64,000 bases of DNA. It comes from an uncultured bacterium (lineage in GTDB: Bacteria > Krumholzibacteriota > Krumholzibacteriia > Krumholzibacteriales > Krumholzibacteriaceae). The position numbers were made by a program, and so were the translations under genes. The DNA lies in contig CAZREW010000015.1 of the NCBI GenBank assembly GCA_964599375.1, positions 10,028 through 74,027 of the forward strand, read 5' to 3'. Positions 21,997 through 47,653 of the stretch are shown one piece after another; positions within the stretch are counted from its first letter, which is position 1; every line of letters starts with the position of its first letter. The notes under the pieces are model-generated. The model saw only the letters and a program-made list of their open reading frames with translations. It searched no databases and was not told the origin of the DNA.

Positions 21997-22815
21997 TTAT
22001 GAGTCATTGAGCTTCTCGAGCTCGATGAGCCTGCCGCCGTTCCTGAACTCGACCAGATCCATCAGTTCCTTAATCAGGTAGATCCCCCTGCCCGAGCCCT
22101 TGTAGATGTTCTCCTGCTCGGTGGGATCGGAGATCTCCTCCGGGATGAACCCCTCCCCCTCGTCCTCGATCTGGATGCGTATGCGGCTGCTGCTGATATA
22201 TACGCGGACCCTCACCTTGAGCTTCTCGTCAGACCTGTTGCCATGCACTATGGCGTTACTGAGCGCCTCGTCCACGACCATCGGCAGGTTGACTCTGCTC
22301 TCCTCGGGAGGGAACCCGAACTCGGCGGAAAGAAACGAGATGAGGCGGTTGACCCCGAGTATCCGGGACAGCTTGCTCGGAACGACGAAATCAAGCCTCA
22401 CGTGTCCTTCCCTTATCAGCTCGTTGTTTCTCGGGAACGGGATGCCGCGGTCGGCGGCGTGGCGAAGGACGCCCTGCGCGTCCGCCCTGCTGAAAGGCGG
22501 TGTGATTATACCGTCGATCCCCATCGATATGTACGTCAGGTAGGCCCTCTCGTCGCACTCGCCGGTCACGATATACAGCGGCGATTCGATCATCGACAGC
22601 CTGAGCTGCCTCGTCTTGCCAGGATCGAGCTTTCCGGAGGGTAGAAAGAGGAGCAGGTTGGGACAGCAGTCTCCCGCCGACTGCAGCGCCTTGAGGAACC
22701 TCGGGAATGTCTTGTACGCCTTTACCTCGACATCCTCCGGGAGGCGTGCCTCGGCAAAGAACTGGTCATGCAGCGCAGGCTGCAGATTGAGTATATACAA
22801 TGAAAGTCTGTTCAC
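21997..22815 (-). CDS. Pseudo-receiver fused to an RsbW-like anti-sigma/Ser kinase (HATPase_c_2) domain
   Basis: C-terminal VDEALSNAIVHGN, IEDEGEGF and GSGRGIYLIKELMD boxes. N-terminal alpha/beta receiver-like pattern without the acidic residues. Confidence 0.8.
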   Translation of the reverse strand: MNRLSLYILNLQPALHDQFFAEARLPEDVEVKAYKTFPRFLKALQSAGDCCPNLLLFLPSGKLDPGKTRQLRLSMIESPLYIVTGECDERAYLTYISMGIDGIITPPFSRADAQGVLRHAADRGIPFPRNNELIREGHVRLDFVVPSKLSRILGVNRLISFLSAEFGFPPEESRVNLPMVVDEALSNAIVHGNRSDEKLKVRVRVYISSSRIRIQIEDEGEGFIPEEISDPTEQENIYKGSGRGIYLIKELMDLVEFRNGGRLIELEKLNDS

Positions 22816-40664: not shown

Positions 40665-42143
40665 CTATTTTCGACTCGCCGCGCCGACGAGTGCCTTCTC
40701 CGCTTCCTCGATATCGCTGAAATGTATCTTCCCGCCGGCAAGGACCTGGTAGTCCTCGTGCCCCTTGCCGGCCAGCACTACCATCTCCTTATCGGCCGCC
40801 AGACCTATCGCTGTCCTTATCGCCACCGCCCTGTCCGATATGACCTCGATCGGGGTGCCAGAACCAGACATCCCCTCGAGTATGTCCCGTATGATCGCGT
40901 CCGGGTCCTCCGATCTCGGATTGTCGCTCGTCACATAGACCATGTCGCTGAGATCAGCAGCCACCTTTCCCATCATCGGCCGCTTTCCCTTGTCGCGGTC
41001 GCCTCCGGCCCCGAACACGGTCACCAGCTTCGCCGGCGAGAGCTCGCGGCAGAAGAGAAGCAGTTTCTCGAGAGCGTCCGGCGTGTGCGCGTAGTCCACT
41101 ATCACGGTCGGACCGCCGCCAGACCTGATGAGATGGAACCTCCCCGGGATCTCTTCCATATCTGACAGGCCCGCAGCGATCGCGTCCGGGCCCGCCCCGG
41201 AGACGCGGGCCGCCGCCGCAGCTCCCAGCGCGTTCAGCGCGGAGAATCTGCCGAGCAGGCGCATATCTACGCGGAGATCGAGATCCGGGGCGGCGATGGT
41301 GAACCTCGTCCCCGAGAGATCAGCGGCAAGGTCTTCACATCTGAAAACGGCTTCTCTGGAGGTTCCGAACGATATCTTCGGCCCGGAGTATCTCGAGCCG
41401 ACTTCTGCCACGTTAGCGTCATCGATGTTGTACACAAGTGTCCCGGCACCCTTGGCCCTGCCGGGAGCCGACAGGGACCGGACAAAGGTCTCCTTGGCCT
41501 CTATATATCTTCCCAGGGTACCGTGATAATCCATGTGGTCCCTCGAGATGTTCGTAAAGACGCCTATGTCGAACTCGAGCCCGCCTGTCCTGCCCTGGGC
41601 GGCGGCGTGCGAGCTGACCTCCATCACCACCGACCTGCAGCCGCTGCCGACGAAACCGGCGATTATCCTGTTAATATCCGAAGACGAGGGGGTCGTGTTG
41701 GCCGACGCACTCAGCTTTCCGCCCGTCCCGAATCCTACCGTCCCGATGATGCCGGCCGGTCCATTCGACCTCTGCAGTATCGATTGGAGCATGAAAGCAG
41801 TAGAGGTCTTGCCGTTCGTGCCGGTGATACCGACGAGCAGGACCTTCGATGAAGGGTCTCCGAAAAAAACGCGGGCGAGCGACGCCTCGGCCGCCGAAGT
41901 ATTATCAACGACGACAACGGGAATGTCAGCTTCGACCGGACTTTCGACGACAAGCGCCGCCGCGCCCGCATTTACCGCATGATCCACATAATCGTGGCCG
42001 TCCGCCTCATGTCCCCTGACTGCCACGAAAAGTTCTCCCTCTGATATCGACCTGGAGTCGGTCGATATCCCTTTTATCTCGACATCGCGCCATCCGTGGC
42101 GCGATATGACGTCAATGTCCCTGAGCAGTTCCTCGAGCTTCAC
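40665..42143 (-). CDS. murE: UDP-MurNAc-dipeptide--meso-DAP ligase
   Basis: GITGTNGKT, MEVSSH, FTNISRDHMDYH, VDYAHTPDAL, DNPR (meso-DAP specificity) and AGKGHE motifs. GTG start overlaps the ftsI stop. Confidence 0.97.
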   Translation of the reverse strand: MKLEELLRDIDVISRHGWRDVEIKGISTDSRSISEGELFVAVRGHEADGHDYVDHAVNAGAAALVVESPVEADIPVVVVDNTSAAEASLARVFFGDPSSKVLLVGITGTNGKTSTAFMLQSILQRSNGPAGIIGTVGFGTGGKLSASANTTPSSSDINRIIAGFVGSGCRSVVMEVSSHAAAQGRTGGLEFDIGVFTNISRDHMDYHGTLGRYIEAKETFVRSLSAPGRAKGAGTLVYNIDDANVAEVGSRYSGPKISFGTSREAVFRCEDLAADLSGTRFTIAAPDLDLRVDMRLLGRFSALNALGAAAAARVSGAGPDAIAAGLSDMEEIPGRFHLIRSGGGPTVIVDYAHTPDALEKLLLFCRELSPAKLVTVFGAGGDRDKGKRPMMGKVAADLSDMVYVTSDNPRSEDPDAIIRDILEGMSGSGTPIEVISDRAVAIRTAIGLAADKEMVVLAGKGHEDYQVLAGGKIHFSDIEEAEKALVGAASRK

Positions 42144-44266
42144 CTTGCCGCCCCTCCGGCGAGCGCCAGTTCGCTGCCTTCGTTGTTTTTCGCCGCGCTG
42201 CACCTGATCGATACGGTGGTCCCCTTCGACACCTTTCTTCCCGGAGGCGGGTCCTGCTTCTGCACTCTCCCCGAACCGGCGATCCTGCTCCTGAGGCCCG
42301 ATTCGATCAGCATACGCCTTGCCTGTCTTATCGAAAGCCCCCGGAGGTCAGGGACCATCACACCAGCCTCTTTAGCGCCGCCCTCCGATATGAACGACAG
42401 GGAGACCTTCCCGCCTTTCTGCACGAGTGTGCCAGGACCGGGGACCTGCGAATAGACTTCCCCCTCGCCGCTCGTGTACGCGAGATACAGGTCGCAGTCG
42501 CTTGCCAGCTGCTCAGCCTCGGCACACCTGAGCCTGAAGAAACTCGGTACTGCGATCATGTCCTTCGCCCGCTGTCCCGGATCGACGGCGATCTCAGCCT
42601 CGGGAGCGAAAAGATCGGAAGCGAGGTTTATACCCTCCACTATCTCGCTGAAGACCAGGGCCGAGGACGACCCGCCATAGTGCCATCTGTAATCGGGCTC
42701 TTTGAGAACGACCATGCAGACCAGCTTTGGATCGTCCGCCGGAGCAAACCCGGCAAAGCTCGCGATCCAGGTATTCTCAAGGTACCTCGAACCGTCGGCC
42801 ACCTGGGCCGTGCCGGTCTTGCCCGCCGTCTCGATACCGTCGACCGCCGCGTTGACGCCGGTCCCGTCGACCACCACTTCGCGGCAGAACCCCCTGAGCT
42901 TCCTGGCCGTTTCAGGAGAGAGCACCTTTCTGACCCTTACTGGATCGAACTTTCTGACAAGCCCGCCTTCGGGGTCCCTGACTTCCCGCGCTATCCTCGG
43001 CACCATCAGGTCCCCTCCGTTCGCGACCGCGCAGTAGGCCATGGCCATCTGGACAACCGTCACGCCTATCTCCTGCCCGATCGCCATGCTCGGCAGCGAC
43101 CTCGCCGACCAGTCTTCCGGTCTGCGGAGCGCTCCCGCTGACTCGGCGGGCAGGTCGATACCGGTCCTGCTGCCGAAACCGAACCGCAGAAGGAACGCAT
43201 AAAAATCATCCCTGTCGGTGTCCATGACCGCTTTGATCGTGCATATATTGCTCGATTTCTTGAAAGCCTCCTTGAATGTCAACCACCCGAACTTGTGGTC
43301 GTCATTGAAGGTCCCGAACCAGAAATCGGCCCTTCCTTCCTCACCGTAGAACACATCGTAAGGATCGACCTCCCCCTGCTCGAGCAGGTAGGCGGCGGTG
43401 ACCAGCTTGAACGTCGATCCGGGCTCGTAGATGCAGCCGGTCGAATACAGCCCGTTGCCCGTCTTTATCTTTCCCGCTTTCGAGCCTTCCTTTTCGGCCA
43501 GAGCGTATATCTCGCCCGTCCACGGGTCGACGACGACGGCAGCGCCCGAAGCGGCACCATATCTCGAGACGGCCTGCTCGAGCTCGAAATCGACTATCGC
43601 CTGGATCCTTGAGTCGATCGTGAGATAGAGATCGTGGCCGTTCTCCGGTCTGCGTCCGGGCGCGTCCGTGCGTCGATAAAGTCTTCCTCTAGCATCTCTT
43701 ATCATCAGCTTCCATCCGTCGGTACCCCTGAGATAGTCGTCGAACATCAGCTCGAGACCTCCCTTGCCCGCGTTGTCGTCACCGACAGAGCCTAGAAGCA
43801 GTGGAGCCATGCAGTGGAACGGGTTTATCCGTTCAGGGTCCGGGTCGAGCCTGACTCCCTGCATCGATGAAAGCTTTTCCTCCTGCTGGCAGGAGAGCGA
43901 GACCTTCCTGGCGAGGCGTATGTAGTCGTCTTTCCGGTTCAGGAGACGGCGGATAAACGACCTGTTAATCGAGGCGGCGTCGGAGAGAACCTCGAGCTCA
44001 TCGTCATCGCCAGGAAGGTCCCGGGGGGTGACGCCAAGAACATAAGTCCTGTGTGAAACGGCCAGGGGAAGGCCGTTGCGGTCGAAGATGCTGCCGCGGC
44101 TGGCGAGCCAGGAGACCCTCTTCTCGCTGTTGAGGTGCGCATCTTCGATGATCTCGTCATGATCTATTATCTGTACGTCGACTATCCGGAGAAAGATCGC
44201 GCAGACGGCGGCAAGCGAAAGCACATCGACCGTTATCATCCGCCAGTTTTTTAGACGCGACGTCAT
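42140..44266 (-). CDS. ftsI: Class B PBP FtsI with two C-terminal PASTA domains
   Basis: EPGSTFK (SxxK), SSN (SxN) and GKTGTAQ (KTG) motifs; two PASTA repeats (VPSFFRL..., VPDLRGL...). Start at MTSRL (44266). Confidence 0.95.
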   Translation of the reverse strand: MTSRLKNWRMITVDVLSLAAVCAIFLRIVDVQIIDHDEIIEDAHLNSEKRVSWLASRGSIFDRNGLPLAVSHRTYVLGVTPRDLPGDDDELEVLSDAASINRSFIRRLLNRKDDYIRLARKVSLSCQQEEKLSSMQGVRLDPDPERINPFHCMAPLLLGSVGDDNAGKGGLELMFDDYLRGTDGWKLMIRDARGRLYRRTDAPGRRPENGHDLYLTIDSRIQAIVDFELEQAVSRYGAASGAAVVVDPWTGEIYALAEKEGSKAGKIKTGNGLYSTGCIYEPGSTFKLVTAAYLLEQGEVDPYDVFYGEEGRADFWFGTFNDDHKFGWLTFKEAFKKSSNICTIKAVMDTDRDDFYAFLLRFGFGSRTGIDLPAESAGALRRPEDWSARSLPSMAIGQEIGVTVVQMAMAYCAVANGGDLMVPRIAREVRDPEGGLVRKFDPVRVRKVLSPETARKLRGFCREVVVDGTGVNAAVDGIETAGKTGTAQVADGSRYLENTWIASFAGFAPADDPKLVCMVVLKEPDYRWHYGGSSSALVFSEIVEGINLASDLFAPEAEIAVDPGQRAKDMIAVPSFFRLRCAEAEQLASDCDLYLAYTSGEGEVYSQVPGPGTLVQKGGKVSLSFISEGGAKEAGVMVPDLRGLSIRQARRMLIESGLRSRIAGSGRVQKQDPPPGRKVSKGTTVSIRCSAAKNNEGSELALAGGAAR

Positions 44267-44691
44267 CTGCTCTCCGGAACATCCGCCGGGGTGGAGGGGA
44301 GACTTCCCTCTCCACCCCTTGCGGCCCAACGGGCTCTTTCTTCGTCAGTGATATCACCAGGTTCGCAGTAGGCGATCCTGTGTATCTGGTCCGGCGCTCC
44401 CGGCTTCATACCCGCCGCTTCCGCCAGGGGGATGATCCGTTCGGCCGATGCCAGTTCGTTTCTGCGCGTCATGAGGCAGATCCTCTCATCCTTGAGAGCC
44501 TGCCTGAGCCTCGTCCCCTCCTCGATCCTCTTGGAGATCCCGTCCAGGTGCACGTGCAGGGAGATATAGAGGAGCACGAGGCTGGAGAAGAAGCCCAGGA
44601 TGATCAGGAAATTGAACGGCCCCATCCTTCCTTCGAGGGCCCTTTTCACTATCATCGACAGGTGATCGAAATATCTCTGTCCCGTGTTCAT
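44263..44691 (-). CDS. ftsL: Cell division protein FtsL
   Basis: One TM followed by a coiled coil ending LASAERIIPLAEAAGM; lies between rsmH and ftsI. Confidence 0.75.
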   Translation of the reverse strand: MNTGQRYFDHLSMIVKRALEGRMGPFNFLIILGFFSSLVLLYISLHVHLDGISKRIEEGTRLRQALKDERICLMTRRNELASAERIIPLAEAAGMKPGAPDQIHRIAYCEPGDITDEERARWAARGGEGSLPSTPADVPESR

Positions 44692-44719
44692 TCCTGATCC
44701 TCTCCTTGTGTCGGGCCGG

Positions 44720-45631
44720 TCAGGCCAGCCGCTCGGCAGCTCTCAGCCTGGCGCTTCGCGCCCTCGGGTTTTCGGATATCTCCTCTTCGCCGGGTACCAC
44801 CGGGCGCCTTGTCAGGACCTTCAGCCGCGGCTGCCTGCCGCAGGCGCATTCCGGGAAATCGGAAGGACAGATGCATCCCTTCTCCTCGGCCTGGAAAAAT
44901 CTCTTTACTGTCCTGTCCTCGAGCGAGTGATAGCTGATCAGGACAAGTCTCCCACCCGGAACACACAGCTCAAGAGAGGCCGGCAGAAATGCGGCCAGTG
45001 CCTCGAGTTCCCTGTTTGCCCATATTCTCAGCGCCTGAAAGACCCTCGCCAGCGTGGAGATCATATCCCTGGCGGGAGCGGCCTTTTCAACAGCGGCCCT
45101 GAGCCTCGCCGTGCTCTCGATCCGCCCTGCTGAGCGTTCCCTGCAGATCTCGCGGGCGACCGCCCTGCTCCGGCGCTCTTCCCCGTATTCGCGGATGATT
45201 CGGGCGAGTTCCCGTTCTGAGGCTGTATTGATAAGCTCTTTGACATCGCCGCCGCCGGGCCCCATCGCCATATCGAGCGGGCCGTCGGCGAGATAGCTGA
45301 ATCCCCGTTCCCTGTCGGCTATCTGAAGCGATGAGAGGCCCAGGTCGAGAAGGATCCCCTCACACTTCCCGCCGGAAAGATGCTGTGATATCTCGGAGAA
45401 ATCGCCTCGGACGAGCGTAACACGGTCGCCGAACCGCCTGAGCCTGTCAGAGGCTGCGTCAAGCGCTTTCGGATCGCGGTCGATCCCGATGAGCCTGACC
45501 TTTTCGCCGCCTGCCTCGAGAATAGCCTCGGCGTGCCCGCCCATCCCAACCGTTCCGTCGATGTATTTCCCTTCCCTTCCTGTCATCAGAAACCTCACGA
45601 CCTCATCGACCAGGACAGGCGTATGTATCAC
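44720..45631 (-). CDS. rsmH: 16S rRNA m4C1402 methyltransferase RsmH (MraW)
   Basis: HTPVL, DGTVGMGGH, DLGLSSLQ, GPLDM, FQALRI, ISYHSLEDR and NPRARSARLR motifs. GTG start at 45631 overlaps the upstream stop. Confidence 0.97.
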   Translation of the reverse strand: MIHTPVLVDEVVRFLMTGREGKYIDGTVGMGGHAEAILEAGGEKVRLIGIDRDPKALDAASDRLRRFGDRVTLVRGDFSEISQHLSGGKCEGILLDLGLSSLQIADRERGFSYLADGPLDMAMGPGGGDVKELINTASERELARIIREYGEERRSRAVAREICRERSAGRIESTARLRAAVEKAAPARDMISTLARVFQALRIWANRELEALAAFLPASLELCVPGGRLVLISYHSLEDRTVKRFFQAEEKGCICPSDFPECACGRQPRLKVLTRRPVVPGEEEISENPRARSARLRAAERLA

Positions 45632-46029
45632 CTGCCGTCCACCTCCAGCGGGCAGCCCGCCGCCTCCCCTTTTCCGGAGGCGTACGCGCCCATTTTCCCT
45701 CTTTCGACCTTCAGATACCTGAAGGCCTTCCTCCAGTCTGAAAAAACGGGGGTCATCTTCGTTCTGCTTACGAAAGCGAAGATACTGAGGAGATAATCGT
45801 TGAATCCGCTGAAGATGACCCCGGGGCTCGTTCCGATCAACCTGTCGAGCGACTGAAACACCCTGTAATCGGCGTGACGGACTCCGGCGAAATCGAGGAT
45901 GCAGCAGCCTCCGGACACAGCGGGCGCGCACCCGATGTGGCTCGCGAGCATCTCGGCGTCACTGTCGTCGATGACGCCTGAGATCCTCAGGACCTCGATG
46001 CCGTCCCGGTCTGTGCGATGGACCCTCAT
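45628..46029 (-). CDS. STAS-domain (anti-anti-sigma-like) protein inside the dcw operon
   Basis: VLRISGVID, ILDFAGVRHAD, SGFNDYLLSIF and VFSDWRKAF follow the STAS pattern; GGAG RBS; TGA overlaps the rsmH start. Confidence 0.72.
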   Translation of the reverse strand: MRVHRTDRDGIEVLRISGVIDDSDAEMLASHIGCAPAVSGGCCILDFAGVRHADYRVFQSLDRLIGTSPGVIFSGFNDYLLSIFAFVSRTKMTPVFSDWRKAFRYLKVERGKMGAYASGKGEAAGCPLEVDGR

Positions 46030-46046
46030 CCCTGCTCCCTGCCGGA

Positions 46047-46481
46047 CTAGTATTCCCACTCGCCGTCGAGGAAAGTGTCGTCAGCTTCGTGGCTGACCTT
46101 CTCGTAGTCCTCGATCGACCAGATCTCGATATAGTTGAGGACCCCGACTACCATTACCTTCTTAGGCCCGCCCAGAGCCTCGAGCATCGCCGGAGGGATC
46201 GCGATCCTTCCCGACTTGTCGAGGTTGAGCGTCCGTGATTTGCTGCTGTAGAACCTGATGTAGTTCCTCTTCTTCGGGCCCGGAGGAAGCTTGTGCAGCT
46301 CGCTGACGACGACCTCGTTCCACTCGTTGAGCGGGTAGAGGTTGAGGCATCGCTCCTTGCCCATCGATATGACGTACATCGCGGCTGATACTTCCGGGAC
46401 AAGATGCCTGAACTTCGCGGGAACCATCAGGCGTCCCTTCGCGTCGATCGTGCATTCGAAATTTCCAAGGAAGTTCTGCAT
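46047..46481 (-). CDS. mraZ: Division/cell-wall cluster transcriptional repressor MraZ
   Basis: FLGNFECTIDAKGRLMVPAKFR, CLNLYP, LDKSGRIAIP and GVLNYIEIWS motifs (two SpoVT/AbrB repeats). Confidence 0.97.
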   Translation of the reverse strand: MQNFLGNFECTIDAKGRLMVPAKFRHLVPEVSAAMYVISMGKERCLNLYPLNEWNEVVVSELHKLPPGPKKRNYIRFYSSKSRTLNLDKSGRIAIPPAMLEALGGPKKVMVVGVLNYIEIWSIEDYEKVSHEADDTFLDGEWEY

Positions 46482-46588
46482 CTTTCCGGCCTTTCAGAGG
46501 TCCTCCCCATCCTACCTCACGGCCGGAATATCGGTCGGCGCCGGCAGTGACGATCTTTACATTTTGGGGACTAACCTCTCCATTTCGA

Positions 46589-46613
46589 CCCACTTTATCC
46601 CACTCTCTCCCAC
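46589..46613 (-). promoter_or_regulatory. MraZ operator: three GTGGG direct repeats at 10-bp period
   Basis: CCCAC at 46589, 46599 and 46609 on + (GTGGGAGAGAGTGGGATAAAGTGGG on -). Confidence 0.85.
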
Positions 46614-46621
46614 AGTGTCAA
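46592..46621 (-). promoter_or_regulatory. sigma70 promoter of the dcw operon (Pmra)
   Basis: TTGACA (46621-46616), 18-nt spacer, TAAAGT (46597-46592); overlaps the MraZ repeats. Confidence 0.7.
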
Positions 46622-46789
46622 GGGAAAATATCGTAACATGCCCTTAATTCTCATATTTTACTGTGTTGTATAATAAAGAGTTAGCGGATACAGGAAAAAA
46701 AATCCACAGGGTTCCGTGTTTTCCCCGATCTACCACCGGTTCCCACCTGTCCAAAGGGCCCGGTCATCCTGAAATGGAAGGATCTGCCT

Positions 46790-47653
46790 TTAGCTGGCGT
46801 CGGCCGGCCGATCCGGGGGGATGCCCGGCCTGACAGCGGCGAGGACCAGGGTCGATGCGAGGAGCGAAATGGGAGGGGTCCTCTCCATGACGGCCTCAAG
46901 CCCCCTGGCCAGCGGGAAGACCGGATCCGGCAGGTTCTTCAGAACGAAGATGATCCTCTGCGAACCCGTTACCTCGAACCCCTCATCCTCGAGCATCGAC
47001 CTGATCTCCCCCTCAGGAGAGGGCCTGTGGTATCTGTACGGATGGTAGTCGGACCGCTCGATCTCACCTACGGGATAGCACATCCCGGGGAGCGCCCTCT
47101 TGAGGAACGGCAGCCTGTTGGCGACCCGCTTCCCTGTCTCGACGAACGAGTAGTAGTTTGGAGTGGAAAGGACGAGGGCGCCCCCCGGCTCGAGAACGCG
47201 CCACGCCTCACGGACAGCTGACCGGCGGTCGGGGTGAAAGACATGCTCGAATGTCTCAACCGCCGTGACCGCGGCAAAGGTACCGTCGCCGAAGGGAAGA
47301 GCGCTCATGTCGGCGCAGCTGAGCCTTGACTGCGTGCCGTTCGCAGCCGCGATCATCGATGCCGCCGCGAAATCGTTCTGCACAATGTCTATCCCGTACG
47401 GGGCGTAGCCGCGAAGCCCTAGAAGAAAGAGGTTGTATCCCCACCCGCAACCGACGTCGAGTGCCCGGCGCCCCATCCCGGCCGGGAGCATCCCGGTCAC
47501 CGCCACGAAGCGCCTGCGGCTGAGCCACCTCTTCGCCTTCGAGCCGAGAAACCAGTTCTCTAAAAGGCTCGGCATCCGATCCGCCTGTATCCCCACCGGG
47601 ATAACAGGCTCGGGAAGGTCTTTCATCTCCAGGCCGGGCCGATCCGTATTCAT
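46790..47653 (-). CDS. Class I SAM-dependent methyltransferase
   Basis: ALDVGCGWG, ADMSALPFGDGTF, ETFEHV and LEPGGALVLSTPN motifs; last gene of the glycan operon. Confidence 0.9.
   Translation of the reverse strand: MNTDRPGLEMKDLPEPVIPVGIQADRMPSLLENWFLGSKAKRWLSRRRFVAVTGMLPAGMGRRALDVGCGWGYNLFLLGLRGYAPYGIDIVQNDFAAASMIAAANGTQSRLSCADMSALPFGDGTFAAVTAVETFEHVFHPDRRSAVREAWRVLEPGGALVLSTPNYYSFVETGKRVANRLPFLKRALPGMCYPVGEIERSDYHPYRYHRPSPEGEIRSMLEDEGFEVTGSQRIIFVLKNLPDPVFPLARGLEAVMERTPPISLLASTLVLAAVRPGIPPDRPADAS

Follow-up and report, generated by a model that had tools for sequence, protein, structure and literature searches.

In most bacteria, mraZ and rsmH head the division and cell-wall (dcw) gene cluster, and the functional relationship between the two genes is poorly understood. 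In a 64,000-nt stretch of DNA (hereafter, the window) from an uncultured member of the Krumholzibacteriaceae (GenBank assembly GCA_964599375.1, contig CAZREW010000015.1, positions 10,028–74,027), the two genes are separated by an open reading frame (ORF) encoding 133 residues, which raises the question of what this ORF encodes and why it is kept between them. Here, our analysis revealed that the ORF is a genuine coding sequence, maintained by purifying selection, and the second cistron of an mraZ-led dcw operon, that its product is predicted to be a standalone STAS-fold protein, and that STAS genes, probably of one lineage, fill this slot in most Krumholzibacteria and in some other phyla. The reading we favor, and to which we give an even chance, is that the protein acts as a phosphorylation-independent STAS binding module in an MraZ-controlled operon, with MraZ or RsmH as its candidate partner.

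All genes of the locus lie on the minus strand. mraZ (46047–46481; 144 residues; Pfam MraZ, 2.7e-26; TIGR00242, 6.3e-28) ends with a TAG stop codon at 46049–46047, and the ATG of the STAS gene (45628–46029) follows at 46029 after a spacer of exactly 17 nt, tccggcagggagcaggg, within which a Shine–Dalgarno sequence, AGGGAG (46035–46040), lies 5 nt before the ATG. The TGA stop codon of the STAS gene (45630–45628) overlaps the GTG start codon of rsmH (45631–45629) as GTGA, and RsmH (44720–45631; 303 residues; PF01795, 2.8e-98; TIGR00006, 9.4e-87) aligns to the PF01795 model from model position 3. The 133-residue length, the 17-nt distance from mraZ, and the GTGA overlap had all been described in an initial annotation of this DNA, which did not give the strand, and were confirmed. 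A longer, GTG-started frame for the STAS ORF (from 46059) was rejected, since every homolog starts at MRV(Y/H)RTD.

Taken alone, the window protein scored 12.4 bits against Pfam STAS_2 (cut-off 29.2; E 0.18) and gave no NCBIfam match at E<=1. Its relatives were more informative. We sampled nine families of Krumholzibacteria, referred to here as f1 (the window's family), f2 (its sister family), f3 (a family of the same order), and f4–f9. Of 22 close relatives, 20 gave a PF01740 match at E<=1, the best of them at 1.7e-6, while the Pfam STAS or STAS_2 cut-off was passed by eight of the nine positional counterparts from f4–f7 (for example, STAS_2 at 4e-13) and by four of the five counterparts found outside the phylum. 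Among the Krumholzibacteria STAS genes of this slot, the f1 version is the one most diverged from the Pfam STAS models. A profile search of the sequences in the Protein Data Bank (PDB) pointed in the same direction, as anti-sigma antagonists or RsbR accounted for 14 of 16 matches, including all of the top eight, with E-values from 0.015. In the AlphaFold2 model (pLDDT 78, pTM 0.71), the predicted elements follow the STAS order, with strands at residues 2–8 and 11–20, a helix at 22–33, a strand at 42–53, a helix at 55–67, a strand at 71–74, and helices at 78–87 and 99–117; the core spans residues 1–117, the tail (118–133) is predicted to be disordered, and residues 115–131 have pLDDT values below 50. 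All 33 Foldseek matches at E<=0.001 were STAS proteins or domains (TM-score up to 0.81), headed by RsbS (6jhk, TM 0.80–0.81), SpoIIAA, RsbV, and SLC26 STAS domains. Structure prediction, Foldseek, and the Pfam matches of the positional counterparts therefore agree with the STAS fold proposed at the outset.

The ORF is also conserved. A search of 5.8 billion proteins returned 49 protein clusters at 57–87% identity, and an exhaustive representative search added further members down to 32% identity; approximately 190 homologs were collected. These protein searches returned only Krumholzibacteria-like relatives, and the wider distribution described below comes from whole-genome searches. Among 22 relatives, 26 residues are invariant. 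The ratio of nonsynonymous to synonymous substitution rates (dN/dS), calculated against six relatives, was 0.16–0.31 for the STAS ORF, 0.07–0.27 for mraZ, and 0.12–0.24 for rsmH. When confined to the folded core (residues 1–113), the STAS value was 0.10–0.20, similar to those of mraZ and rsmH, while the last 20 codons (114–133) displayed a dN/dS above 1 with a low dS. The C-terminal tail is missing from relatives of 118–126 residues, and its final codons in the window, CTG GAG GTG GAC GGC AGG TGA, include GGAGGTG (45640–45646), the Shine–Dalgarno sequence of rsmH, which is read as part of L-E-V-D-G-R and stands 8 nt before the rsmH GTG. These observations indicate that the tail is constrained at the level of nucleotides rather than peptide, and the conservation of the 'EVDGR' ending is mostly of this kind because its codons carry the rsmH Shine–Dalgarno sequence. 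The Cys42-Cys43 pair of the protein was considered as a redox switch and rejected, as it is kept only in close relatives.

A departure from the GTGA overlap was observed in a genome of the same genus (G049, locus L003, 4370–4460), where the STAS stop codon reads TGC instead of TGA and the frame continues 11 codons into rsmH. The STAS protein of this genome carries Arg, not Tyr, at position 55.

Position 55 is of particular interest since it is where a phosphorylatable residue would be expected. In HMMER alignments to anti-sigma antagonists, in an hhalign comparison with a canonical STAS protein of the same genome, and in a MAFFT alignment, Tyr55 fell on the phospho-serine column, and the segment H52-A-D-Y55-R-V (codons 45859–45876, spanning a loop and the start of a helix at the phospho-serine location of SpoIIAA and RsbV) aligned with the Y/W-I-S-S-A/T-G segment of canonical paralogs (ISSAG/ISSTG). 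The D-Y-R-V reading of the phospho-loop given in the initial annotation was thereby confirmed by three alignment methods, at residues 54–57 (45870–45859). We then counted the residues at positions 52, 55, and 79 in 190 family proteins. Among the 54 f1-type proteins, position 55 is occupied by Tyr in 45, by His, Arg, Ser, and Phe in two each, and by Leu in one; the 34 proteins of f4/f5/f6 type have Phe in 29, Tyr in three, and Ile and Met in one each; and the 102 f7-type proteins have Tyr in 81 and Phe in 21. In total, 181 of 190 proteins carry Tyr or Phe and only two carry Ser, a pattern that fits an aromatic ring, and not a hydroxyl, as the feature conserved at this position. His52 is present in 188 and Tyr79 in 189 of the 190 proteins, and the two form a near-invariant family signature. 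Tyr79 (codon 45793–45795) lies at the start of helix 3, and canonical paralogs have Asp or Arg at its position. Within f1, Ser74-Gly75 is likewise invariant.

The order mraZ–STAS–rsmH proved to be a stable property of the window's family. All eight loci taken from named metagenome-assembled genomes belong to Candidatus Krumholzibacteriota and have the order mraZ–STAS–rsmH–ftsL–ftsI. When 208 genomes of the phylum were searched, strong matches (E<=1e-30) were obtained in 41 of 42 f1 genomes and in the single f2 genome, and the gene order and an intact frame were found in all 42 f1/f2 loci examined. In 31 other genomes of the phylum we located mraZ and measured its distance to rsmH. In f4, f5, f6, and f7, the gap is 508–685 nt and holds one ORF of 131–207 residues in each case, which matches the f1 profile weakly; in f3, f8, and f9, it is only 52–138 nt and contains no insert. 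The slot is consequently occupied by a STAS gene in six of the nine sampled families. Family f3 (loci L075–L078, with mraZ and rsmH 52–132 nt apart) is a clear case of secondary loss in a clade whose other members all carry the gene. A relocated copy in the families lacking the insert was considered and rejected, as the weak matches elsewhere in those genomes are canonical, SSTG-type STAS proteins, which argues that f3 lost the gene and did not move it. The f3 genomes are, in effect, natural 'knock-outs' for comparative work.

Outside the phylum, we compared the MraZ and RsmH coordinates of 53 genomes, each from a different family. The two genes could be placed side by side on one contig in 33 of these, and the gap between them reached at least 350 nt in seven. 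In five of these gaps there is a STAS ORF, with E-values between 1e-19 and 1e-6 against the Krumholzibacteria profile, and a direct search of all 53 genomes revealed no further STAS case beside rsmH. Exact-sequence look-up identified one of these proteins in Candidatus Edwardsbacteria (MDQ7797963.1, 'STAS domain-containing protein') and one in candidate division KSB1 (MBL7073901.1, 'hypothetical protein'). Tyr occupies the acceptor column in four of these five STAS proteins, and His in the fifth. The Edwardsbacteria protein displays the full H-x-D-Y-R motif together with Tyr79, and elsewhere the signature is partly kept, with I-T-S-H in the KSB1 protein and Thr at position 79 in another. At two further loci outside the phylum (L105 in genome G232 and L108 in genome G214), mraZ and rsmH are separated by ~365–480 nt with neither a STAS-like ORF nor any gene-strand ORF of at least 70 residues; a small gene or an RNA could fill these gaps.

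A maximum-likelihood tree of 38 proteins placed the 29 dcw-linked proteins and nine canonical STAS proteins, all of the latter drawn from Krumholzibacteria, on opposite sides of a single branch with 88/88 support. This unrooted tree is built from short sequences, and, of the dcw-linked proteins, those from other phyla stand closest to the canonical ones. The topology is compatible with one origin of the dcw-linked proteins but is no proof of it. The genome survey proposed in the initial annotation recovered the arrangement well beyond the window, in all 42 f1/f2 loci, in counterparts from f4–f7, and in 5 of 53 genomes outside the phylum. Its description of the gene as 'inserted', which implied a local novelty, should be dropped in favor of an old and widespread arrangement.

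How might such a gene be expressed? The only sigma-70-like site in the interval 44200–46900 is TTGACA-18-TAAAGT at 46621–46592, approximately 110 nt upstream of mraZ and downstream of a terminator-like hairpin (46718–46705) that ends the upstream unit; we denote this putative promoter Pmra. Three direct GTGGG repeats (46613–46609, 46603–46599, and 46593–46589), recurring every 10 nt, overlap the spacer and the -10 element of this site and form a putative MraZ operator (46589–46613). The corresponding TGGG-N6-TGGG-N6-TGGG pattern occurs once in the window when both strands are searched. Of 23 f1/f2 loci, 16 have this pattern upstream of mraZ at a distance of 116–143 nt, as does one f3 locus; in one f5 locus, the distance is 66 nt. 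In Bacillus subtilis, MraZ represses the mra operon through binding repeats in which the motif GTGG[A/T]G appears three times, once every 10 nt, and comparable repeats have been reported from other species (10.1101/2022.02.09.479790); the GTGGG repeats of the window match this form. Between mraZ, the STAS gene, and rsmH, we detected no promoter-like or terminator-like site. The earlier claim that the STAS gene is under MraZ control can thus be kept as a well-founded inference: its place in the mra operon, behind a sole promoter-like site with three repeats, was upheld, and the control itself is deduced from this arrangement.

The operon continues downstream of rsmH with an ftsL-like gene (44263–44691), taken from the ORF list, and with ftsI (42140–44329, start uncertain), in an order that is the same in all related loci examined; the FtsL-like protein gave no Pfam match. 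Between the promoter-like site and the mraZ start lies an untranslated leader of ~110 nt (46482–46592, minus strand), which gave no Rfam match at E<=1, as did the whole interval 44200–47000. Within the STAS coding region, a perfect 12-nt inverted repeat (45749–45760 and 45811–45822) encloses a 50-nt loop and may be due to chance; a repeat scan of the locus otherwise yielded only short repeats of the size expected by chance.

The genome that carries the window also encodes canonical STAS systems, with which the dcw-linked protein can be compared directly. Its canonical STAS domains number 13 and occur in proteins with the Ser motif; it also has several kinases of the RsbW type, and pairing or fusion of the two kinds is usual. 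At least eight of its proteins exceed the Pfam cut-off for HATPase_c_2. On the anti-sigma antagonist model TIGR00377 (cut-off 53.45 bits), dcw-type proteins scored 14–35 bits and a canonical paralog of the same genome scored 63.2. As was first proposed, the dcw-linked protein is unlikely to be a normal substrate of an RsbW/SpoIIAB kinase, because it has no Ser/Thr acceptor and fails this model. Its neighbors point the same way: in approximately 70 loci, mraZ and rsmH flank the gene, and no kinase, phosphatase, or sigma gene adjoins it. The nearest HATPase_c_2 gene, 23 kb away (21997–22815, minus strand), encodes a 272-residue protein whose N-terminal half is receiver-like and whose C-terminal half is of the RsbW-type HATPase_c_2 kind; it has no STAS neighbor. 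This kinase had been put forward as a candidate interactor. Its gene lies ~21–26 kb from mraZ across all families of the class, the STAS-less f3, f8, and f9 included, and many f7 genomes with the STAS gene give no match to it at E<=1e-8; with no co-occurrence between the two genes across the class, we rejected it as the specific partner.

Elsewhere in the same genome, outside the window (contig C3, ~74155–78114), a 1455-residue open frame combines an RsbW-type HATPase_c_2 domain with three STAS domains that follow it, and looks like a giant self-contained partner-switching protein. Frames of 1350–1900 residues with STAS matches recur in many Krumholzibacteria genomes.

These findings led us to favor a phosphorylation-independent binding module. 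In SpoIIAA, the face formed by strand ends and helix starts bears Ser58 and docks the partner kinase SpoIIAB. In the window protein, His52, the aromatic residue at position 55, and Tyr79 (in f1, also Ser74-Gly75) are predicted to sit where strands 3 and 4 end and helices 2 and 3 begin, and this conserved face would be expected to bind either another protein or a small ligand, because the equivalent face of SpoIIAA has that docking role. As there is no phospho-switch, activity would be set by the amount of the protein, following transcription from the presumably MraZ-repressed Pmra, and in the window's genus this amount would be tied to that of RsmH through the overlapping stop and start codons. 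If a partner had to be named, it would be one of the proteins encoded at the head of the operon, MraZ or RsmH, because the slot is kept across phyla while other dcw positions are unused. This step is deduced from gene position, and, together with the one that follows from it, namely that the STAS protein may adjust the activity of RsmH or the repression exerted by MraZ and, through this, the expression of ftsL and ftsI, it is the weakest of the proposal.

Several observations count against this proposal. Our analysis identified no partner of the STAS protein and, among the loci examined, no natural fusion with MraZ or RsmH; apparent fusions were rejected, since the long open frames proved to be chance frames in GC-rich DNA and the G099 locus has the normal three-gene arrangement. 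The C-terminal tails of MraZ do not vary with the presence of the STAS gene, and the DWEY-type tail is uninformative on a partnership, as it occurs also in f3. The protein is dispensable, given that f3, f8, and f9 do without it and that their mraZ and rsmH genes show no visible change. The clustering of the conserved residues was mapped from topology and not from coordinates. Finally, a kinase partner elsewhere in the genome is possible, because the closest relatives in sequence and structure are anti-sigma antagonists.

A stronger form of the favored proposal would make the STAS protein a third component of the MraZ–RsmH module in several phyla, either binding MraZ as an anti-repressor or binding RsmH, and this we consider unlikely on present evidence. 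For the first of these roles, AbbA, which acts on the related AbrB fold, offers an analog. In Escherichia coli, the toxicity of MraZ overexpression is relieved by co-expression of MraW/RsmH in a way that has not been explained, and this relief does not hold in B. subtilis (10.1101/2022.02.09.479790). If the STAS protein were such a component, it would supply a physical link behind the antagonism of MraZ and RsmH and would tune the expression of ftsL and ftsI.

Alternatively, the protein could be a non-phosphorylatable and hence always-active antagonist that titrates an RsbW/SpoIIAB-type kinase, so that a sigma factor would be released in proportion to dcw transcription. The S58A variant of SpoIIAA is a constitutively active antagonist of this kind, anti-sigma antagonists and RsbS are the best sequence and structure matches of the window protein, and the genome has at least eight HATPase_c_2 proteins, including the one in the window that has no STAS neighbor. 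Against these stand the failure on TIGR00377, the consistent lack of a kinase or sigma gene beside the STAS gene, and the distribution of the orphan kinase of the window, which occurs in the three families devoid of the STAS gene, while many f7 genomes with the gene give a weak match to it or none. The bulky Tyr or Phe at the acceptor position and His52 are, furthermore, unlike the kinase-docking motif of the canonical paralogs. On balance, we doubt this explanation.

A scaffold or a ligand sensor had been among the roles suggested in the initial annotation, and either may be right. Binding of nucleotides or of acyl carrier protein (ACP) is known for some STAS domains, and the conserved face might be a pocket. 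A sensor in which His52, Tyr55, and Tyr79 recognize a nucleotide, a cell-wall precursor, or a metabolic precursor and pass the signal on to the division machinery would account for the near-invariance of His52 and Tyr79 and for the aromatic residue between them, placed by prediction at the strand-end crevice that is the usual ligand site of alpha/beta folds; the STAS domain of YchM with ACP (3ny7) was among the fold matches. The Pfam and NCBIfam scans recognized no ligand-binding motif, however, and outside the phylum the signature is incomplete, as in the KSB1 I-T-S-H segment and the protein with Thr79. Although we judge a dedicated sensor quite improbable, this explanation is compatible with the binding module favored above and does not exclude it.

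The initial annotation had also raised the idea of a tyrosine-phosphorylated regulator, in which Tyr55 replaces the serine as the acceptor of a tyrosine kinase. Tyr indeed prevails in the window protein, its close relatives (45 of 54), the f7-type proteins (81 of 102), and the dcw-linked proteins outside the phylum (four of five), but a conserved Tyr-phosphate switch is hard to reconcile with Phe dominating whole families at this position (29 of 34 f4/f5/f6-type proteins, along with 21 of 102 of f7 type). Moreover, nine of the 54 close relatives have a residue other than Tyr, among them the same-genus relative with Arg and an otherwise intact gene, and the locus has no linked gene for a tyrosine kinase, so we regard such a switch as very improbable. 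That the gene is a decaying or functionless STAS remnant carried along in the operon, as the sub-threshold scores of the window protein on every curated STAS model and the loss in three families without visible consequence might suggest, is effectively refuted by the core dN/dS, the invariant residues, the confident fold prediction, and the intact frame in every f1/f2 locus.

While the STAS fold itself is well known, a serine-less lineage that is embedded in the dcw cluster and has its own signature appears to be undescribed, and a full-text literature search found no paper describing a STAS gene in the mraZ–rsmH slot. Public labels for these proteins read 'hypothetical', 'STAS domain-containing', or 'anti-anti-sigma factor', the last of which is probably misleading. 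A gene kept between mraZ and rsmH over such deep lineages is a concrete candidate for a partner of the MraZ/RsmH module, and a STAS branch with a His/Tyr signature in place of a phospho-switch would widen the range of uses to which STAS domains are put. The confirmed carriers of the gene are uncultured organisms.

Among known STAS proteins, SpoIIAA and RsbV (TIGR00377, TIGR02886; PDB 1th8, 1h4z, 6m36) are the best remote sequence matches of the window protein and resemble it in being standalone proteins of ~110–130 residues with the same predicted fold (TM 0.69–0.78) and, as mapped by topology, with conserved residues on the same face. They differ from it in their Ser/Thr acceptor, in their membership of TIGR00377, whose cut-off the window protein does not reach, in lacking its His52/Tyr79 signature, and in gene context, as they are encoded beside an RsbW/SpoIIAB kinase and a sigma factor and not between mraZ and rsmH. 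RsbS, the stressosome core protein (6jhk, 2vy9, 3zxn), is the best structural match and is also a single STAS domain. Its gene lies with rsbR and rsbT, and RsbT phosphorylates it at a conserved Ser; the window protein has neither this Ser nor this gene context. The STAS domains of SLC26/SulP transporters, in turn, were only fold matches and were rejected as an identity for a standalone protein of 133 residues.

Two further systems illustrate how a STAS protein can operate without serine phosphorylation. RsfA (Rv1365c) of Mycobacterium tuberculosis is a phosphorylation-independent anti-sigma antagonist of UsfX, for which cysteine-based redox control has been reported. It shares with the window protein a mode of regulation that would not involve serine phosphorylation; the two differ in that Cys42-Cys43 is restricted to close relatives of the window protein and no anti-sigma gene is linked to its locus. 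MlaB is a standalone STAS partner of the ABC ATPase MlaF and works by partner binding instead of a phospho-switch. JGI labels some homologs of the window protein 'MlaB component', an identity that we rejected on the basis of NF033618 scores of 13–13.5 bits (cut-off 90) and of a locus with no mlaFED genes adjacent and no mla genes in it. MlaB serves here not as a family to which the window protein belongs but as an example of how a serine-less STAS protein can work.

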